Shown here one piece after another: positions 9,079 to 50,890 of a stretch of 64,000 nucleotides of DNA; position 1 is the stretch's first letter; each line of letters starts with the position of its first letter. Location: the IMG/VR virus record IMGVR_UViG_3300023049_000387, positions 1 to 64,000 of that record. The stretch is one strand, 5' to 3'. The notes beneath the pieces were generated by a model, which saw only the letters and a program-made list of their open reading frames with translations, made no database searches and had not been told where the DNA came from. Source of the stretch: an uncultured virus (IMG/VR IMGVR_UViG_3300023049_000387). Taxonomy: Duplodnaviria; Heunggongvirae; Uroviricota; Caudoviricetes. Made by a program: the position numbers and the translations under genes.

Positions 9079-9519
9079 ATGGGAGAAAAAATCACAAAAG
9101 GAGATTTATTTTTATTTACATCACATTATGATAATGGTCGTTCAGTCCATTACTATGGTTCACTTGTAGAAATAATTGGTATTGCAAGTAATAGCATAAT
9201 GATGGTAACTGGTGAAGGAGATTTAAACACTAAAGAGAAATTGCTTATAAGAATAATAAAGGATAGTAACTTTAAAGACATTGATTCTAGTAAATTTTCT
9301 AAAACGCTTGTAAAAGATTTAAAAATTAAATTTAAATTTAATCTAGAAAATGATACCATTGAAGCAGATTCACATGATGTGCACAAGATAAATATAGACT
9401 ATGGATTAGTTGAAATTGATAAAAAAATAGATAGGCTTTTAAAAGAGAAAACTCTTTACAATGACTTTCATATCAGGACAAGAAAGCTAAGGAAATTATT
9501 AGATGATTCTAATGACTAG
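9079..9519 (+). CDS. hypothetical protein
   Basis: ORF track. Confidence 0.6.
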   Translation: MGEKITKGDLFLFTSHYDNGRSVHYYGSLVEIIGIASNSIMMVTGEGDLNTKEKLLIRIIKDSNFKDIDSSKFSKTLVKDLKIKFKFNLENDTIEADSHDVHKINIDYGLVEIDKKIDRLLKEKTLYNDFHIRTRKLRKLLDDSND

Positions 9520-10067
9520 TTATTCTCAAATGGACTTATCTTAGAATCTATCAAAGACATCAATTCATTGTGTGTTTGTGATAGATTCCTTGATACTAAA
9601 CCATCTAAAATAAATCTAGTTTCTGTCACATACTTGCTGACAAATTTATCACTACCTTGTTCTAAATCTGAGCAATTGTGTAATCTATCAGCTAACTTTA
9701 TAACAAGAGCATAACTAGTCATATTTAGCATTTTATCTAATAAATACTCTGATTTACCTACCTTCTCTATTTTGTTATTATCAGATGTAAGTTCTTCTAC
9801 TATACTACTGACCATTTTTCCAAACTCTTCTTCTATATTACTAATAGTAACATCACAATCTTCAACAGTGTCGTGAAGTAATGCCGCAATACAAATTAGC
9901 TCCTTATTTTTACTCACCTTGACCTCCCTAACTATTTTGCTTACTGCAATTGGGTGCCATGCATATTCTTTGCCAGAAAATTTTCTAAACTGTCCATCGT
10001 GTGCCTCTATCATAAATAATAGAGCCTTTCTTAGCTTTGTTTCTTTTTTAGTTTTCATAGTTGTCAT
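9516..10067 (-). CDS. HD-domain (p)ppGpp hydrolase-like protein (SpoT-HD/Mesh1, small alarmone hydrolase)
   Basis: AHDGQFRK..G.EY.WHP..V, AALLHDTVED, V.ELT, IKLADRLHN. Confidence 0.88.
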   Translation of the reverse strand: MTTMKTKKETKLRKALLFMIEAHDGQFRKFSGKEYAWHPIAVSKIVREVKVSKNKELICIAALLHDTVEDCDVTISNIEEEFGKMVSSIVEELTSDNNKIEKVGKSEYLLDKMLNMTSYALVIKLADRLHNCSDLEQGSDKFVSKYVTETRFILDGLVSRNLSQTHNELMSLIDSKISPFENN

Positions 10068-10313: not shown

Positions 10314-10423
10314 ATTTAATAAAATATTTCATAAATACTTTAATAATTCGAAATATATTCAGTATGTTTGTATCATATAATTTACTACAGATAATAGTAT
10401 TATGAACAAACAAAGAAGTTATT

Positions 10424-10660
10424 ATGAAAAATCTTAAAAAATGGTTTAGAAATTTATCAATTACTAACCTTGCTCACTACTACTGGCTAAAAATAAGAGA
10501 AGAATCAAAAGATAGACATGGTGAAAAATTATGTTATTGTGGACACACTAATAAATGTAGTTGTGATGACCCAGATAAACAAACTTTTAAAGATTCTGTA
10601 AAAAGAGGAACTATAATTATATTTGATAAAAAGAACGGTTGGAAAACTTCCAAAAAATAA
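10424..10660 (+). CDS. hypothetical protein (CxCGHxxxCxC)
   Basis: ORF track; TATGTTTG motif upstream. Confidence 0.55.
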   Translation: MKNLKKWFRNLSITNLAHYYWLKIREESKDRHGEKLCYCGHTNKCSCDDPDKQTFKDSVKRGTIIIFDKKNGWKTSKK

Positions 10661-12001
10661 ATGTAATAAATATAAAACTATGGAATCTAATAAAAAAGAA
10701 ACTAATGGGATATTGTCAGTAGTTCTAAATGTTTTCCTAGTAGCTACAGAAAATAGGCTAATAAGCTTCGCTATCAAAAATAAAGAATTAAGCCCTGAGC
10801 AGACTAGTTATATAGAGTCTGAATACGGCAAAATAGAATCTATCGAAGATGGTAGTAGTGGGTTCACTAAAACTGTTATATACATTTAATAAAATGAACT
10901 ATGTTAATTAGAAAAATGTATACCTTGTACATAAATACAACACTTAGAACTGCATACTTTGGTAATCTAAAGTTTGGATGTAGAATAGGTGGTGCAAAGT
11001 TTGGTAAAGTAATTGATTGTAATTTATCTGATTTGAAACACAACCTAAGAATACTAGCAGAAGAAAATTATTTAATTAATAAACGCACGTATTAAAATGA
11101 AAATAACAAAAGGAACATTCAAATATACTGGTATTAACGATATAGATATTGACTTAGTCACAGACAAGTGGAATCATTTATGGATGCTTGCTGAGTGGAA
11201 AGTAGACAATTCTTGGAAAATAGTCAAATATATTAGAAAAGACTCTCAAAATACCGAGATAAAGCTAACGATATCATGTGAACAAGCAACTGAACTTATT
11301 AAAAACCTTGGCTTAATTAATATTAATACTGGGTTTCAAAGTGGTTACTCTTGGAGGACTAAAAAGGATATGGTGTATTTAGAGAACTGGAGATTGGCAA
11401 GACATAAGAAATTACAGACCAAATTAATAACAAACAACTTTTAAATTATGAAAGATACATTTAGATACTTCATCAGAAAGAACTTCTCTGAGATTGGCGA
11501 AATAAGCAATGAGGATATTGATGAAATCGGAATTGAATTTCACAAGTACTTGGATAGCAAATTAAATGATGACCAAAAGGCTAAAATACTACCAAAAAGT
11601 GCGATTGATGTAATAATGAATAGCGACCACCCACTTAAAACAAACGGATTTGAGCCAGCATATATGCTACATTTTACACAATGGACAAAGGAACAAAGTG
11701 AATCGCAAGACTAGTTAAATGTTTTTATAAATTTTTTGGCTATTAGCTTCTATATTTACACAATAATAATAATAAAACAATGAATAAAGACAATAATTCT
11801 ATTATAGATACTAATGTACCTCTTTTTAAGTATATCGAGATTAAGGATTATGACAATGATAGTGTTGTTAAGCGACTAGATGTAAGCGATAAATCCGATA
11901 GGCGTATAGATACTATCGAAAGTGGGATTGATATAAACTTAAACCATGACCAATACTATACGTTTAGTCATGATAGTGAAGTTGAATTAGAACTCATATG
12001 A
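10623..12001 (+). other. run of small hypothetical early-type ORFs (10623/10680-10889, 10901-11095, 11097-11444, 11448-11714, 11780-12001)
   Basis: tightly packed co-oriented ORFs; no recognisable domains. Confidence 0.55.
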
Positions 12002-12030
12002 AAATAAATTTAAATCTTTTTAAAAAACAC

Positions 12031-12141
12031 TTGTGAGAAACAAATATTAGTTATATATTTGCACAGAACCTAAAATAATTTAAACTTTTAGTAAAAAAAA
12101 GAATATAAATAACCAAAGGAAGAAATAAAATTTAATATATA
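12031..12141 (+). promoter_or_regulatory. compound promoter region of tRNA cluster 3: TATATTTG (12054-12061), AAACTTT..TATAAA (12082-12109), TAATATATA (12133-12141)
   Basis: three recurring motif classes; homologous to 16740-16849. Confidence 0.6.
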
Positions 12142-12147
12142 ATAGTG

Positions 12148-12267
12148 ATGAAAAATTTAAACCTAAATACAAATAGAAACTTAACGCTCAATGTGGTGAA
12201 TATTATGTTATGTAATAGACCATCTAGGGGTTCTAGTGTATTTAATAAATTTCATCTTATGACATAG
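12148..12267 (+). CDS. attenuator leader peptide 2 (39 aa, MKNLNLNTNRNLTLNVVNIMLCNRPSRGSSVFNKFHLMT)
   Basis: codons 3-24 encode only N,L,T,R,V,I,M,C, the amino acids of the downstream array; contains antiterminator TCTAGGGGTT (12223-12232). Confidence 0.78.
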   Translation: MKNLNLNTNRNLTLNVVNIMLCNRPSRGSSVFNKFHLMT

Positions 12268-12290
12268 TGAAATAAAAAATACAAATAACT

Positions 12291-12330
12291 AAAACCCCTA
12301 GAAATGAAAATTCTAGGGGTTTTTTTGTTT
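12291..12330 (+). terminator. attenuator terminator upstream of tRNA cluster
   Basis: AAAACCCCTAGAA-loop-TTCTAGGGGTTTT + T tract ending just before the first tRNA. Confidence 0.88.
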
Positions 12331-12333
12331 TAT

Positions 12334-12418
12334 GCTAGTGTGGTGGAATGGTAGACACGAGGGATTCAAAATCCTTTAATCAGAAATGATTATATGAGTT
12401 CAAATCTCATCATTAGTA
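12334..12418 (+). tRNA. tRNA-Leu(CAA)
   Basis: anticodon arm AGGGA-TTCAAAA-TCCTT, long variable arm. Confidence 0.85.
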
Positions 12419-12430
12419 CATATATTACAA

Positions 12431-12504
12431 TCCTCGTTAGCTCAGTGGTCAGAAGCTCTCGTCTGTTAAACGAAAGGTCGGTGGTTCGAATCCACCACGA
12501 GGAG
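12431..12504 (+). tRNA. tRNA-Asn(GTT)
   Basis: acceptor TCCTCGT/ACGAGGA, anticodon loop CTGTTAA. Confidence 0.9.
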
Positions 12505-12512
12505 CAAATAAT

Positions 12513-12594
12513 CGGCATATACCAGCCCAAGCTGATACCTTGGAGAACTGTAGTTGGTAAGTTGAAAACGTAGGTTCGAGTCCTACTGTGCCGA
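12513..12594 (+). tRNA. non-canonical tRNA-Ile(GAT) lacking a D-arm at the normal position
   Basis: acceptor CGGCATA/TGTGCCG, anticodon arm CCAAG-CTGATAC-CTTGG only 7 nt after the acceptor, perfect T-arm. Confidence 0.7.
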
Positions 12595-12608
12595 CTTTTA
12601 TGACACTT

Positions 12609-12693
12609 GTCGGAGTGGTGGAATGGCAGACACGCTGGGTTTAAGCTCCAGTGGGCAGTGATGTCCGTGAGGGTTCGAGTCCCTTCTCCGATA
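12609..12693 (+). tRNA. tRNA-Leu(TAA)
   Basis: anticodon arm CTGGG-TTTAAGC-TCCAG, long variable arm. Confidence 0.9.
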
Positions 12694-12702
12694 CGAATAA
12701 AT

Positions 12703-12792
12703 GCCAGTGTGGTGAAATTGGATGAAACACGCTAGTCTTAGGAACTAGTACCCAAGAGGTAAACATTGTCGGTTCGAGTCCGACCACTGGTA
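12703..12792 (+). tRNA. tRNA-Leu(TAG)
   Basis: anticodon arm CTAGT-CTTAGGA-ACTAG, long variable arm. Confidence 0.9.
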
Positions 12793-12802
12793 CAAAATAA
12801 AT

Positions 12803-12883
12803 GCCTTAGTAGTCCCGATTGTCTTCTAAACAATTAAGGGTAATTGGAAGCTGAAAATATAGGTTCGAGTCCTATCTAGGGTA
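12803..12883 (+). tRNA. non-canonical tRNA-Arg(TCT) lacking a D-arm at the normal position
   Basis: acceptor GCCTTAG/CTAGGGT, anticodon arm ATTGT-CTTCTAA-ACAAT, perfect T-arm; same layout as 12513-12594. Confidence 0.7.
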
Positions 12884-12892
12884 CAAATAAAA

Positions 12893-12966
12893 AGTTCTGT
12901 AATTCAGGGGTTCAGAATGCTTCCCTTACAAGGAAGAAGTCGTTGGTTCGAATCCAACCAGAACTA
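12893..12966 (+). tRNA. tRNA-Val(TAC)
   Basis: anticodon arm CTTCC-CTTACAA-GGAAG. Confidence 0.9.
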
Positions 12967-12972
12967 CAAAAT

Positions 12973-13044
12973 GTACCTATGACCGAGTGATTTAGGTAGG
13001 TGGCTGCAACCCATCGTACGGGGGTTTGAATCCCTCTAGGTACT
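12973..13044 (+). tRNA. tRNA-Cys(GCA)
   Basis: anticodon loop CTGCAAC, U73 discriminator. Confidence 0.85.
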
Positions 13045-13051
13045 CTAATAT

Positions 13052-13124
13052 GCTGACATAGCTCAATTGGTAGAGCATTTGATTTGTAATCAAAAGGTTG
13101 TGGGTTCGAAGCCCTCTGTCAGCT
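13052..13124 (+). tRNA. tRNA-Thr(TGT)
   Basis: anticodon arm TTTGA-TTTGTAA-TCAAA. Confidence 0.9.
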
Positions 13125-13134
13125 CTGAAAAAAT

Positions 13135-13224
13135 GCACTAGTGGCGAAGTGGATGAAACGCATCAGACTTAAAATCTGATACCCTTTGAGGTGAACAACG
13201 TGGGTTCAAATCCCACCTGGTGTA
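13135..13224 (+). tRNA. tRNA-Leu(TAA)
   Basis: anticodon arm TCAGA-CTTAAAA-TCTGA, long variable arm. Confidence 0.88.
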
Positions 13225-13228
13225 CTAA

Positions 13229-13314
13229 ATCGCTATGAACAGATGTGGTAATTGTGCTTGGCTCATATCCAAGTTAGAGAAATCTTATTGTTGGTTCAAG
13301 TCCAACTAGCGGTA
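13229..13314 (+). tRNA. tRNA with CAT anticodon (Met/Ile2) and enlarged variable arm
   Basis: anticodon arm CTTGG-CTCATAT-CCAAG; extra arm TTAGAGAAATCTTATT. Confidence 0.8.
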
Positions 13315-13316
13315 CA

Positions 13317-13357
13317 AAAAAAGAGGGGATATAATTAATTATATCCCCTCTTTTTTA
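13317..13357. terminator. bidirectional intrinsic terminator
   Basis: AAAAAAGAGGGGATATAAT/ATTATATCCCCTCTTTTTT between convergent units. Confidence 0.85.
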
Positions 13358-13368
13358 TATTATTTGTT

Positions 13369-13800
13369 TTATTTATTTTTAAGACTTTCTATATCATCCC
13401 TTATCTCATCTATATCATCTAAAGATATATCATCCAAATCTTTACCAGCATCACCAGTATTATCTGTTACTACAGGAATAACATCTTCTATCCCTTTATC
13501 TATTTCCTTAGCAATGTAATCATCCCCTGCAATACTCTCTCTTTCTATTTGTAAACAGAACTGTGCTAATACTGCTAAATCATCATTTTTCTGTGCTAAA
13601 TCGAATACTTTGCTATTAAGTTCATATTTTGACATACCTCTAAATTTCTTTCTAGTATAGTAGTCATAGAAATCTTGCTCTTCTCTAGACATAACATTAG
13701 ATGGTTTTCTATCAATACCAAATATCTCTGTCTTTTTAGCTTTTGCAGTTACTGCTTCGCTCACTTTTTTATTGTTAAAGTCTTTATATTTTTTTATCAT
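13369..13800 (-). CDS. hypothetical protein (putative virion-packaged)
   Basis: MIKKYKDFN N-terminus; TAATATATA upstream. Confidence 0.65.
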   Translation of the reverse strand: MIKKYKDFNNKKVSEAVTAKAKKTEIFGIDRKPSNVMSREEQDFYDYYTRKKFRGMSKYELNSKVFDLAQKNDDLAVLAQFCLQIERESIAGDDYIAKEIDKGIEDVIPVVTDNTGDAGKDLDDISLDDIDEIRDDIESLKNK

Positions 13801-16739: not shown

Positions 16740-16849
16740 TTGTATAAACCATTTATTTATATTATATTTGCATAGAAATAATATAATTCTAAACTTTTAT
16801 AAAAAAAAGTCTATAAATAACCATAGAGAGAAATAAAAGTTAATATATA
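16740..16849 (+). promoter_or_regulatory. compound promoter region of tRNA cluster 4
   Basis: TATATTTG 16763-16770, AAACTTT..TATAAA 16791-16817, TAATATATA 16841-16849. Confidence 0.6.
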
Positions 16850-16856
16850 AAACATA

Positions 16857-16961
16857 ATGAAAAATTTAAACTTAAACATAGTAGTTAACCCTCAACCCCA
16901 AGTTGATATCGATCAGGATTCTGATACGAAAGGTGCTAACTATGTTTTAAATTTAAGTTGA
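16857..16961 (+). CDS. attenuator leader peptide 3 (34 aa, MKNLNLNIVVNPQPQVDIDQDSDTKGANYVLNLS)
   Basis: PQPQVDIDQDSD matches downstream Asp/Gln/Pro tRNAs; antiterminator GCTAACTATGTTTT (16935-16948). Confidence 0.78.
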   Translation: MKNLNLNIVVNPQPQVDIDQDSDTKGANYVLNLS

Positions 16962-16977
16962 TATTTAAATAATAAAA

Positions 16978-17023
16978 ACAAAAACTCGGTTAGTCTTTTA
17001 GATTAACCGAGTTTTTTTTGTTT
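16978..17023 (+). terminator. attenuator terminator upstream of tRNA cluster
   Basis: AAAACTCGGTTAGTCT-TTT-AGATTAACCGAGTTTT + T tract. Confidence 0.88.
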
Positions 17024-17027
17024 ATAT

Positions 17028-17100
17028 AGCTCTGAGGTCAAATGGTTAAGATGTACGTCTGTCTCACGTAACGGAGTGGGTTCGATTCCCATCAGAGCTG
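17028..17100 (+). tRNA. tRNA-Asp(GTC)
   Basis: anticodon arm TACGT-CTGTCTC-ACGTA, G73. Confidence 0.88.
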
Positions 17101-17112
17101 CTAATATTAAAT

Positions 17113-17186
17113 TGCCCCATAGTGTAATTGGCTAACACATCTGGTTTTGGTCCAGAAGATTGCAGGTTCGAACCCTGCTGGGGTAA
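17113..17186 (+). tRNA. tRNA-Gln(TTG)
   Basis: anticodon arm TCTGG-TTTTGGT-CCAGA. Confidence 0.9.
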
Positions 17187-17195
17187 CAAGTTAAT

Positions 17196-17269
17196 CGAGA
17201 AGTGACTAAGGTTATAAGCACGGGTGCATTGGAGGCATCAGTTAGCAGGTTCGATTCCTGTCTTCTCGA
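17196..17269 (+). tRNA. tRNA-Pro(TGG)
   Basis: acceptor CGAGAAG/CTTCTCG, anticodon loop ATTGGAG; atypical D-arm. Confidence 0.75.
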
Positions 17270-17281
17270 CAAATTTTTAAT

Positions 17282-17353
17282 AGTCCATTAGTGTAAAGGT
17301 TATCATTTCCGACTGTCTCTCGGAAGATAGGGGTTCGAATCCCCTATGGACTG
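17282..17353 (+). tRNA. tRNA-Asp(GTC)
   Basis: anticodon arm TCCGA-CTGTCTC-TCGGA. Confidence 0.9.
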
Positions 17354-17359
17354 CAAAAA

Positions 17360-17433
17360 TGCTCTATAGTGTAATTGGTTAACACGTCTGGCTTTGGTCC
17401 AGGAGATTGTAGGTTCGAACCCTACTGGGGCAA
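17360..17433 (+). tRNA. tRNA-Gln(TTG)
   Basis: anticodon arm TCTGG-CTTTGGT-CCAGG. Confidence 0.9.
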
Positions 17434-17442
17434 CAAGTATAG

Positions 17443-17515
17443 CGAGGGTGTAGTGTAATCTGGTAACACACGATGTTTGGGACATCGAATTGCTGTTCGA
17501 ATCGGACATCTTCGA
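17443..17515 (+). tRNA. tRNA-Pro(TGG), apparent 8-bp acceptor and short T-stem
   Basis: CGAGGGTG/CATCTTCG, anticodon arm CGATG-TTTGGGA-CATCG. Confidence 0.78.
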
Positions 17516-17652
17516 CAAAAATTATAGTTAAAACTAAATGTTGTTAATAAGCAACATTTTAGCACTTTTTGTTGTTAATAAGCAACAAAAAAAATTAACA
17601 CAAAAAACAACATATAATTCAAACTAAACTGTTATATTTGAATATATAGTAT

Positions 17653-29714: not shown

Positions 29715-31254
29715 TTTATGATTACCTTATGTATTAATATGATTACTACTAATAATTAGCTTCGATTGTTGCGAAGGTCGGTTTTGATTACCTTATGTAT
29801 TAATATGGTTACTATCTCCAAAAAGGGGTGTTAAGTCTACTTCGTAGTTGTGATTACCTTACGTATTAATATGATTACTATCTACATAACTTTTACTCCT
29901 GGGAGAAGAGTAGTTGTGATTACCTTGCGTATTAATATGATTACTATCATCACGTTTACAATGATTAAAGGGGTGATGGTTGTGATTACCTTGCGTATTA
30001 ATACGATTAGTACAAACCGCTAGCATTCATGTTGTGATTACCTTGTGTATTAATATGATTATTATCTCCTTTAACTGAAAATTAGACCATTTCATGTTGT
30101 GATTACCTTGCGTATTAATATGATTAATATTTCATATTCAGACAGTTTAAACGTGTATTTAGTTGTGATTACCTTATGTATTAATATGATTACTATCTAA
30201 AGTAGGAGGCAGAACATCATCTATATTGTTGTGATTACCTTACGTGTTAATATGATTACTATCATGCTACCATGCTTTATAAAATAATTACCAGTTGAGA
30301 TTACCTTACGTATTAATATGATTACTATCTTAAAATCAAAACAGCCAATATAGACGAGTGTTGTGATTACCCTATGTATTAATATGATTACTATTTTTTG
30401 TATAATCCTAGCCATAATGGCGTTGTTGTGATTACCTTATGTATTAATATGATTATTATCACTTTTCAAAAAGAGTCCTATTAAGTATTTGTTGTGATTA
30501 CCTTGCGTATTAATATGATTACTATCAAAAATAACACTAAGATATTCAGGTTCTATGTTATGATTACCTTACGTATTAATATGATCACTATCTAAGCCTT
30601 TTGGTAGATATTTGTGTTAAGGTTGTGATTACCCTATGTATTAATATGATTTCTATATAGTGCTATTAAAGCATATGTCAATAAAGTGTTGTAATTACTA
30701 CATTTAATTATTTAGTGGTTTGTTTTAAAATGTCAAAGAACTATTTTTATCTATGTAGATAATTACCTTACGTATTAATATGATTACTATCAAAGAATGA
30801 TGAAGCTACTTATTAAGCTACCGTTGTGATTACCTTACGTATTAATATGATTACTATCTAGGAGGTCTTTTGCTACAAATTTTTATGGGTTGTGATTACC
30901 TTGCGTATTAATATGATTACTATCATAATCGAGTTGTTGGAACTTTGATTTGTGGTTGTGATTACCTTGTGTATTAATATGATTACTATCTTGCAAGATT
31001 TTCTAGCTTGCGTTGTAAGTGTTGTGATTACCTTGCGTATTAATATGATTACTATCATGCTGTAATTAAGATGATGGTAGGTCCATGTTGTGATTACCTT
31101 GCGTATTAATATGATTACTATCTATCACGTACCAATTCATTTTTACCCTTATGTTGTGATTACCTTGCGTATTAATATGATTACTATCAGAAAATTTATC
31201 CAAAGGAATACTTATCCCGTTGTGATTACCTTGCGTATTAATATGATTACTATC
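29715..31254 (-). CRISPR. CRISPR array: 23 repeat units (36 nt, one split) and 22 spacers (mostly 30 nt)
   Basis: + strand consensus GTTGTGATTACCTTGCGTATTAATATGATTACTATC, ~66-nt period; repeats perfect at the cas6 end and degenerate toward cas3; strand inferred from cas operon and degeneration gradient. Confidence 0.97.
30730..30743 (-). promoter_or_regulatory. boxA-like antitermination element inside the array
   Basis: minus strand TAGTTCTTTGACAT resembles boxA (GYTCTTTAACA-type). Confidence 0.55.
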
Positions 31255-50278: not shown

Positions 50279-50890
50279 ATGAAACATATAAAACCTTATA
50301 AGATATTCGAGAGTGCTAGTACTAACTTCCCAACTACAAAAGAGGAAGTTATAGAAGTGTGTGAAAAGTATGATATAAGAAAATACACTATTAATGATGA
50401 TTTAAGTATTGATGTTAATGGTGGTGTTTTTTTGCGTAATAAAAAATTAGAATACTTACCACTTAGATTTAATTATGTGAGTGGTAGTTTTAATTGTTCT
50501 TATAATCGTAAATTAAGATCATTAAAAGGTAGTCCACAAACAGTATCTGGTGATTTTTATTGTAACAGTAGTGGATTAAAAACATTAGAAGGTTGTCCGC
50601 AAACAGTAGGTGGGGATTTTAATTGTTATAGTAATGAATTAAAATCATTAGAAGGTAGTCCACAAACAGTAGGTGATGGTATAAATATAGAGGAAAACAC
50701 AGTAAATTTATTAGTGTATACCTTTATTGAAAATGCTGATAGCTTTATGATAGAAGATTTTAACGACTATGAAATAGTTAGAAATAGAGATACTGTTATG
50801 TTAGATAGACTACAAACTTTCATTAGAGATAATGATTTAGAAATGCCTGATTTGGAAAAAATTAAAAAACACTATAAAATAATAGAATAA
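50279..50890 (+). CDS. LRR-like 22-aa repeat protein, paralog 1
   Basis: L.SLEGSPQTV.GDF.C..N repeats; shared N- and C-termini. Confidence 0.85.
   Translation: MKHIKPYKIFESASTNFPTTKEEVIEVCEKYDIRKYTINDDLSIDVNGGVFLRNKKLEYLPLRFNYVSGSFNCSYNRKLRSLKGSPQTVSGDFYCNSSGLKTLEGCPQTVGGDFNCYSNELKSLEGSPQTVGDGINIEENTVNLLVYTFIENADSFMIEDFNDYEIVRNRDTVMLDRLQTFIRDNDLEMPDLEKIKKHYKIIE

Follow-up and report, generated by a model that had tools for sequence, protein, structure and literature searches.

A tRNA array preceded by a leader ORF and a terminator

The window analysed here covers bases 1-64000 of one 78.8-kb virus contig, whose G+C content is 29%. This report concerns a unit within it, termed unit A, in which a short leader open reading frame (ORF) and an intrinsic terminator are followed by an array of eleven transfer RNA (tRNA) genes, and which probably acts as a leader-peptide attenuator of these genes. 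The coordinates of the features are collected in Table 1.

Codons 3-24 of the leader ORF, referred to below as the sensor codons, specify N, L, T, R, V, I, M, and C exclusively, and all eight amino acids are represented; Arg is written as AGA (twice) and Ile as ATT. The sequence TCTAGGGGTT at 12223-12232, within the ORF, recurs exactly at 12312-12321, in the 3' arm of the terminator. This terminator sits between the leader ORF and the first tRNA gene, as expected of an attenuator. Its T-run ends at 12326 and the first tRNA begins at 12334, so that the 7 nucleotides (nt) between them leave the array no room for a promoter of its own.

Nine tRNAs were called by ARAGORN with default settings (Leu CAA, Asn GTT, Leu TAA, Leu TAG, Val TAC, Cys GCA, Thr TGT, Leu TAA, and Met CAT). 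The gene at 12803-12883 was supplied by Rfam, whose alignment gives the anticodon UCU, and the Ile(GAT) gene at approximately 12500-12595 was matched by ARAGORN only with a lowered threshold and was without an Rfam match at E<=1. The total of eleven therefore includes one non-canonical gene, Ile(GAT). With this qualification, the locus agrees with the first-pass annotation, which had reported 22 consecutive codons (3-24) restricted to the eight amino acids of the array, AGA and ATT as the Arg and Ile codons of the leader, an exact copy of the terminator 3' arm at 12223-12232, and an 11-tRNA array of these isotypes.

The genes with the anticodons GAT (12500-12595) and TCT (12803-12883) have a reduced D-arm and a long extra arm, the anticodon-CAT tRNA at 13229-13315 is 87 nt in length, and the Leu genes at 12703-12793 and 13135-13225 are 91 nt each. 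Similarly long Ile(GAT), Asn(GTT), and Arg(TCT) genes are carried by relatives. Contigs from four DNA runs covering 11950-12450 differed at 12090, 12091, 12093, 12103, and 12146, with no difference listed within 12148-12330; this material is too slight for a test of conservation. A look-up of RNA runs for 10400-13400 listed none.

The codon run compared with chance

The background usage was taken from the genome's 60 ORFs of at least 150 amino acids, comprising 17,992 codons. The eight-amino-acid set accounts for 0.420 of the residues in these ORFs, and the probability of a run of at least 22 such residues in 38 is 5.4e-8. At the codon level, using the codons readable by the anticodons of the array (frequency 0.363), the probability is 2.3e-9. 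The array can read all 22 codons of the run provided that U34 covers entire family boxes, and strict wobble rules remove CTC only.

Next to this calculation stands an empirical control, consisting of the 205 ATG-started ORFs of 25-60 amino acids in the six frames of the 78.8-kb genome. The leader run of 22 was the longest among them, followed by runs of 17, 14, and 14, all of which come from one repeat region (approximately 29870-31200, plus strand) where short ORFs repeat the peptide VVITLRINMITI. The first-pass annotation had considered that such runs might be frequent in AT-rich short ORFs of this genome, which is not what the control indicates. Given the probability above and the rank of the run among the 205 ORFs, AT-richness does not account for it.

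Homologous units and the four array classes

Two sister units lie in the same window. Unit C2 has a leader in which the codons ATA GCA ATA ATA GCG ATA GGC form an uninterrupted run (P for a run of at least 7, 1.3e-5), with four ATA, two GCN, and three GGN codons in the whole of MRTINNIAIIAIGKGKTHWLGIVM. Unit B shares approximately 86% identical upstream DNA and its first seven codons with unit A. We read the gene at 866-939, in the array behind C2, by eye as Gly(TCC), and the third array gene of unit B, at 17196-17269, as Pro(TGG); the Asp-Gln-Pro array of unit B is duplicated.

The same cassette recurs in an uncultured phage of 634 kb, LR745206.1, and in viral contigs ranging in length from 25 to 476 kb. 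Homologous units were collected from 24 metagenome loci, which gave 18 distinct class A sequences (the classes are described below). A blastn search of a phage collection returned tRNA-level matches only, with the exception of LR745206.1, and a 14-mer scan of viral contigs gave 114 loci, none of which was a leader unit after a filter of at least two downstream tRNAs. LR745206 is grouped among the largest megaphages (PMC9723777), and Bacteroidetes hosts are predicted for genomes above 634 kb (PMC7162821); the words "attenuat" and "leader" are absent from the latter paper.

Four conserved classes of tRNA array can be distinguished in the related genomes, and between them they account for all 20 amino acids. 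Class A arrays carry N, R(TCT), L, V, I(GAT), C, T, and M, and their leaders have runs of 22-24 matching residues (P ~1e-8). Class B comprises D, Q, and P (leader run PQPQDQDP, P 1e-6); class C comprises E, Y, I(TAT), G, and A, headed by tRNA-Met (YYYEAEG or IEYYYEE, P 2e-3); and class D comprises F, H, W, K, R(ACG), and S (HKHFSKSSKWFS, P 5e-6). The class B leader of the window has the run PQPQ, and in PQPQVDIDQDSD the class B set supplies 9 of the 12 residues. When the four leaders of LR745206.1 were compared with the four codon classes, the association gave a chi2 of 50.3 (p 9e-8, with small expected counts). The codon signal is a local cluster and not a property of the entire peptide. These observations extend to the sister and homologous units the match between leader and array that had been proposed for unit A, in that each leader is rich in the codons of its own array.

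The leader is also conserved as a reading frame. An ATG-started frame is open in 18/18 class A, 5/5 class B, and 8/8 class D leaders, and in 6/6 leaders of class C plus C2. Gaps in the class A ORFs are multiples of three in the well-aligned part, up to the antiterminator arm. In the 18 class A leaders, 401 of 413 sensor residues fall within NLTRVIMC, K being the sole exception, and the variable N-terminal part occurs in 13 versions composed only of K, N, L, T, R, M, and I. The stretch CTCAATGTGGTGAATATTAYGTTATG is kept at the nucleotide level across divergent relatives, synonymous sites included.

The match reaches the level of the anticodon. In class A leaders, whose arrays carry Ile GAT, Ile is ATT in 10/10 cases, though the genome prefers ATA (5.4% vs 2.9%), and in the sensor runs of class C and C2, whose arrays carry Ile TAT, Ile is ATA. 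Arg is AGA or AGG in class A leaders, with Arg TCT in the arrays; class D leaders contain CGC four times and CGT three times, plus five AGA mostly at codon 2, with Arg ACG in the arrays. CGC and CGT make up 0.02% and 0.18% of the codons in the genome of the window.

Furthermore, class C is split into two operons in the lineage of the window phage, and the leaders are divided likewise. In a near-identical relative (G004), the leader L007, beginning MNTFTNIEYYYEESE, precedes Tyr and Glu, and the leader at 643 in the window, with its ATA, GCN, and GGN codons, precedes Ile TAT, Gly, and Ala. A leader with Y and E codons, like L007, would then lie just upstream of base 1 of the window. The contig end (78802) was considered as the site of the leader for the array at window position 51 and was rejected, as the contig begins inside the operon; this leader was read in G004 instead.

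In the class C operons (L007, L010, L019, L022, and L026), tRNA-Met(CAT), starting with CGCGGGG or TTGTGGGG, comes first, ahead of the leader and terminator. Because of this location, the initiator-like tRNA-Met of class C would be made ungated. In two class D loci, L027 and L028, the first gene past the terminator is tRNA-like, with the loop CTGTGAA (His) and a long insertion in the D-region, and received no ARAGORN call.

Predicted RNA helices and their covariation

Folding of 12223-12304 gave a two-part antiterminator, in which an outer helix (12223-12232/12293-12302) is followed by an inner helix (12234-12243/12277-12291). Its energy is -25.2 kcal/mol (z-score -6.97; 0/200 shuffles as good) vs -17.9 kcal/mol for the terminator. 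As the terminator 5' arm is used in the antiterminator, formation of the one excludes the other. The duplex of region 2 with the terminator 5' arm has an energy of -17.3 kcal/mol (z -5.8, p 0.002). When the duplex energy of the terminator 5' arm with the leader was compared with 500 shuffles, p was 0.002 in 5/5 class A units, always at codons 25-30, and below 0.05 in 7/8 class D units. The antiterminator of C2 (693-757) was predicted at -15.0 kcal/mol (z -2.9), and that of unit B is weak (z -1.96).

The copy of the terminator arm gave the means for a test by covariation. In class A, region 2 and the terminator arms exist in three states, namely TCTAGGGGTT in the window, TCTGAGGGTT in most sequences, and CGTTCGGGTT in locus L173. 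Over the 18 class A sequences, 97% of the cells were paired, three pairs (five cells) had changed on both sides, and 0/500 shuffles reached this score; the count refers to the outer helix only, the MAFFT alignment leaving the inner helix out of register for the window and L173. In class D, one locus (L032) has ACTTGG and the others GTTCGG, at all three places. Here, over eight sequences, 98.2% of the cells were paired, 4/7 pairs were compensatory, and 1/500 shuffles reached the score. Thus, the perfect antiterminator proposed for unit A in the first-pass annotation is supported, in that the copy within the ORF covaries with the terminator in relatives of both classes.

A further helix competes for region 2. 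In the full-length minimum free energy (MFE) fold, 12164-12171, 12174-12177, 12186-12189, and 12193-12197 are paired with 12219-12244, which makes region 1 a candidate anti-antiterminator strand. Its 11-nt segment AAATACAAATA at 12165-12175 is a copy of 12277-12287, so that region 1 partly duplicates region 3. This 1:2 helix, formed by the sensor codons and region 2, was present together with the terminator in the full-length consensus folds of all three classes, and in unit B (16863-16960) it reached -25.1 kcal/mol (z -5.3). Truncated folds yielded the antiterminator in just 3/5 class B and 2/8 class D units, because the 1:2 helix is stronger there. A conserved hairpin within the sensor codons, at 12201-12217, may serve as a pause hairpin.

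The stop codon was located within the antiterminator loop in 18/18 units from classes A, B, and D, 18-45 nt 3' of the region 2 core and 18-33 nt 5' of the terminator 5' arm. The footprint of a ribosome is about 30 nt. A ribosome waiting at the stop would occupy the loop that separates region 2 from region 3 and, by holding these strands apart, would block the antiterminator. It had been a concern that the arm copy is about 35 nt from the stop and that kinetics or another helix would have to be involved. The inner helix answers this point, as it places the stop in the loop of the antiterminator.

Proposed mechanism and alternative explanations

We propose that unit A is a ribosome-mediated (leader-peptide) attenuator of the trp/ilv style that gives feedback control of the phage tRNA supply, and we put the probability of this reading at roughly 80%. 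Translation of the ORF, stalling, and read-through decided by the stall are predicted from the sequence and from the folds. Transcription would begin no further downstream than the ATG at 12148, and the 39-codon leader would be translated, the outcome being set by the speed at which codons 3-24 are decoded. If the cognate aminoacyl-tRNAs are plentiful, the ribosome would pass region 2 (12223-12243) and reach the stop at 12265; situated between regions 2 and 3, it would block the antiterminator, the terminator at 12291-12326 would form, and the array would remain unmade. A shortage of any one of the cognate tRNAs (N, L, T, R(AGA), V, I(ATT), M, C) would stall the ribosome within approximately the first 21 codons, leaving region 2 free and keeping region 1 from pairing with it. 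Region 2 would then pair with the emerging region 3 before region 4 exists (-25 kcal/mol), so that the terminator would be pre-empted and the 11 tRNAs transcribed. The accumulating tRNAs would relieve the stall and close a negative feedback loop. The sensor codons are read by the very tRNAs that would be produced, which would make the loop a direct negative feedback on decoding capacity. The unit would behave as a multi-input OR gate and would be expected to respond to starvation, and its natural trigger would presumably be a shortage of tRNA, through host shut-off, cleavage of host tRNAs, or codon demand, and not a shortage of amino acids.

Several observations weigh against this reading. The chance expectations for the codon run draw on frequencies in a single genome, that of the window. 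The run opens with five codons (NLNLN) that are also present in the sister leader at 16857, where they do not match the array; the array-specific portion of the run is therefore shorter than 22. More generally, all leaders begin with a T/N/I/M-rich stretch that matches class A codons, and part of the 22-codon run is thus a feature of the cassette. The earlier caveat that the leader contains no TTG codon holds, and it is Leu CAA that heads the array. Enrichment over the whole ORF is modest outside class A (binomial P 0.009-0.06 for B, 0.09-0.6 for C, and 0.007-0.04 for D). Some leaders and arrays also disagree: L001 and L006 retain a Cys codon with no Cys tRNA called in the array, L005 and L006 have no called Met, and L031 has a complete class D leader with only His and Trp called behind it. 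As for the helices, the 1:2 helix of unit A alone has an energy of -17.2 kcal/mol (z -1.6), which 16/200 shuffles equalled, and the class B antiterminator pairing reached p<0.05 by duplex energy in 0/5 units (500 shuffles). The equilibrium MFE fold with the ribosome masked still includes the terminator, and the switch therefore has to be kinetic. Finally, the homologues are related by descent, and they represent about five codon sets and a few covarying lineages of independent evidence, not 40 units.

The same attenuator hardware might respond to amino-acid starvation or to a general slowing of translation, the codon match to the array being secondary. Classical attenuators follow the level of charged tRNA, which falls on amino-acid starvation, the sequence cannot separate low tRNA from low charging, and the A-class-like N-terminal stretch is common to all leaders. 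However, extra tRNA gives no relief from amino-acid starvation, which would make the feedback pointless. The anticodon-level match (ATT/ATA and AGA/CGY) fits the sensing of particular tRNA species, as does the way in which the codon match tracks the splitting of class C into two arrays, and we consider starvation or general slowing an unlikely signal. It is also conceivable that the helices are real and are set by a ligand, by a directly bound tRNA in the manner of a T-box, or by a phage protein, the ORF being incidental; the nucleotide-level conservation of CTCAATGTGGTGAATATTAYGTTATG, including synonymous sites, exceeds what coding needs and would suit such an RNA-only or protein-bound switch. 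Against this stand the ATG frame that is open in all the leaders of classes A, B, C plus C2, and D counted above, with gaps in multiples of three, the confinement of substitutions to the amino-acid set of the array, and the runs of 7-24 matched codons, which a single specifier fails to explain. No Rfam family reached its gathering score in 11990-12340, where the leader families His_leader (26.4 bits vs a gathering score of 49) and Phe_leader (19.1 vs 55) matched the terminator part only, and the T-box (RF00230) was not among the 27 matches at E<=10. Altogether, we regard this explanation as quite improbable. The sub-threshold matches to His_leader, BTnc005, and SpF39 were rejected as evidence of membership, since they align to the terminator only, and in the whole window nothing but tRNA reached a gathering-level match.

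A further alternative is that there is no regulation at all. The leader would then be a small phage gene of the usual kind, ending in a terminator of its own; constitutive leak-through, or else a promoter that went unrecognised, would supply the tRNAs, and the match in composition would be a coincidence in an AT-rich genome. Asn, Leu, and Ile are indeed common in AT-rich ORFs, and the 1:2 helix of unit A is weak. Yet the run (P ~5e-8) is unmatched among the 205 short ORFs, the coincidence would need repeating in four further codon sets, the terminator and region 2 covary, and merely 7 nt separate the T-run from the first tRNA. We give this explanation scarcely any credence, and return to the attenuator.

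Why large phages carry tRNAs is debated, and the proposals include compensation for codon usage, replacement of host tRNAs that are degraded or cleaved in defence, and effects on host range. If the attenuator reading is correct, some phages measure the decoding speed for defined codon sets and respond with the matching tRNAs, so that the reason for phage tRNAs becomes a testable circuit with clear predictions for the depletion of single tRNAs. The cassette is probably general in a clade of huge phages. A wider picture, to which we assign about even odds, is that a clade of huge phages, probably infecting Bacteroidota, carries a near-complete tRNA set covering all 20 amino acids in four operons, each behind an exchangeable codon-matched attenuator and with the initiator-like tRNA-Met ungated at the head of one of them, and that together they form a distributed sensor of decoding capacity that tops up whichever codon set is failing. 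In this wider picture, the failure of the host tRNA pool, through shut-off, anticodon-nuclease cleavage, or codon-usage mismatch, would be detected codon set by codon set, and tRNA homeostasis would be achieved through direct product feedback. In a full-text search of papers available without subscription, we found no published account of leader-peptide attenuation of tRNA genes and no description of tRNA homeostasis by direct product feedback for the tRNA genes of any organism. The attenuator would also extend a textbook mechanism to a new class of targets, in which the product is an RNA with direct feedback on the sensor. As its codon sets can be exchanged, the cassette would offer a modular natural part with which the availability of a chosen tRNA could be sensed. 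For the annotation of phage genomes, the combination of a short ORF and a terminator ahead of a tRNA array could serve as a rule.

Promoter candidates and other features of the window

Upstream of unit A, a candidate host-type promoter consists of TTG and TATATTTG separated by 20 nt, which we take to be a match to the Bacteroidota promoter consensus. In the alignment, this element is conserved in the sister unit at 16741-16770, and the homologous units have TTTG...TAnnTTTG. Closer to the ORF, the TTAATATATAA motif may be a phage promoter or an initiation element, implying a very short 5' leader; in class C, it lies 16-18 nt upstream of tRNA-Met. The more general motif T[TA]AATATATA[AG] has 13 sites in the genome, several of them directly before gene starts (the minus-strand ORFs that start at 13800, 16696, and 74156, as well as the three leaders), and several copies are 4-7 nt ahead of the start codon. 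It may represent a phage promoter that gives leaderless or near-leaderless mRNAs.

Near the tRNA operons, 9516-10067 on the minus strand encodes a 183-amino-acid protein with an HD_4/HD domain (Pfam E 1.7e-16), presumably the domain type of the RelA/SpoT-family (p)ppGpp hydrolases. If this protein is a stringent-response enzyme, a phage-borne copy close to tRNA operons would be of interest. In addition, at least five paralogous genes start with MKHIKPYKIFE..., at 50279, 50893, and 51690 (plus strand) in the window and at 77551 and 78663 (minus strand) in the genome; this start is followed by many short internal repeats, as at the contig end.

Table 1 Features of unit A, its sister units, and the promoter candidates.
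Feature	Positions	Strand	Remarks
Candidate host-type promoter	12031..12061	+	TTG (12031-12033), 20 nt, TATATTTG (12054-12061); scan lists 12031-12059 at 9/12
TTAATATATAA motif	12132..12142	+	5 nt before ATG; present in all homologous units
Leader ORF	12148..12267	+	39 codons + TAG; ATG at 12148, TAG at 12265-12267; reads MKNLNLNTNRNLTLNVVNIMLCNRPSRGSSVFNKFHLMT
Sensor codons 3-24	12154..12219	+	every codon readable by the downstream array
Region 1, candidate anti-antiterminator strand	12164..12197	+	full-length MFE pairing; contains AAATACAAATA
Hairpin within sensor codons	12201..12217	+	UAUUAU-GUUAU-GUAAUA; conserved; in relatives AAUAUUAC-GUUAU-GUAAUAUU
Region 2, predicted antiterminator 5' strand	12223..12243	+	outer arm 12223-12232, inner arm 12234-12243; folding, duplex energy, covariation
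Stop codon, apical loop of antiterminator	12265..12267	+	stop placement survey
Region 3	12277..12303	+	inner 3' strand 12277-12291; outer strand 12293-12302 within terminator 5' arm; fold of 12223-12304
Intrinsic terminator	12291..12326	+	13-bp stem 12291-12323, 7-nt loop, seven Ts (T-run 12320-12326); -17.9 kcal/mol, z -4.25
11-tRNA array	12334..13315	+	Leu CAA, Asn GTT, Ile GAT (non-canonical), Leu TAA, Leu TAG, Arg TCT, Val TAC, Cys GCA, Thr TGT, Leu TAA, Met CAT; ARAGORN + Rfam
Operon-closing terminator	13317..13356	+	terminator scan
Sister unit C2	643..770	+	leader 643-717 MRTINNIAIIAIGKGKTHWLGIVM, terminator 741-769; precedes Ile(TAT), Gly, Gly, Ala (784-1110)
Sister unit B	16857..17019	+	leader 16857-16961 MKNLNLNIVVNPQPQVDIDQDSDTKGANYVLNLS, terminator 16980-17019; precedes Asp, Gln, Pro, Asp, Gln, Pro (17028-17516)
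T[TA]AATATATA[AG] sites	617, 12132, 16840, 55029, 57392, 60412, 62079	+	
T[TA]AATATATA[AG] sites	74170, 54964, 39149, 16711, 13815, 8317	-	

Comparison with known systems

The T-box riboswitches (RF00230) resemble the phage unit in that the state of a particular tRNA is sensed and a choice between terminator and antiterminator is made upstream of translation-related genes. A T-box works without translation, its specifier codon and T-box motif making direct contact with uncharged tRNA, whereas the phage unit has an ORF that is conserved as such. Nearer in mechanism is the attenuator of the E. coli operon for phenylalanyl-tRNA synthetase (pheST), which is a case of leader-peptide attenuation. 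As proposed for the phage unit, it governs a component of the translation apparatus rather than biosynthesis; unlike the phage unit, it senses one amino acid, regulates a protein gene, and belongs to a cellular genome.

Among the attenuators of enterobacterial amino-acid operons, which include trp, his, leu, and pheA, multivalent examples are ilvGMEDA (Ile/Leu/Val) and thr (Thr/Ile). In its sequence and predicted folds, the phage unit has the structural elements of a leader-peptide attenuator, namely the ORF, the codons, the terminator, the antiterminator, and the placement of the stop; the exception is the predicted 1:2 helix, which in unit A is no better than shuffles (z -1.6). As in the amino-acid operons, a short leader ORF carries clustered regulatory codons for several amino acids, a terminator stands before the first regulated gene, the predicted 1:2, 2:3, and 3:4 helices would be mutually exclusive, and the position of the stop would decide whether a ribosome that has not stalled blocks the antiterminator. 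In contrast to these operons, the genes that the phage unit would regulate are tRNAs and not biosynthetic enzymes, so that the product would act directly on the step that is sensed; up to eight amino acids would be sensed by a single leader; and the whole is a phage-encoded cassette, repeated with exchangeable codon sets.

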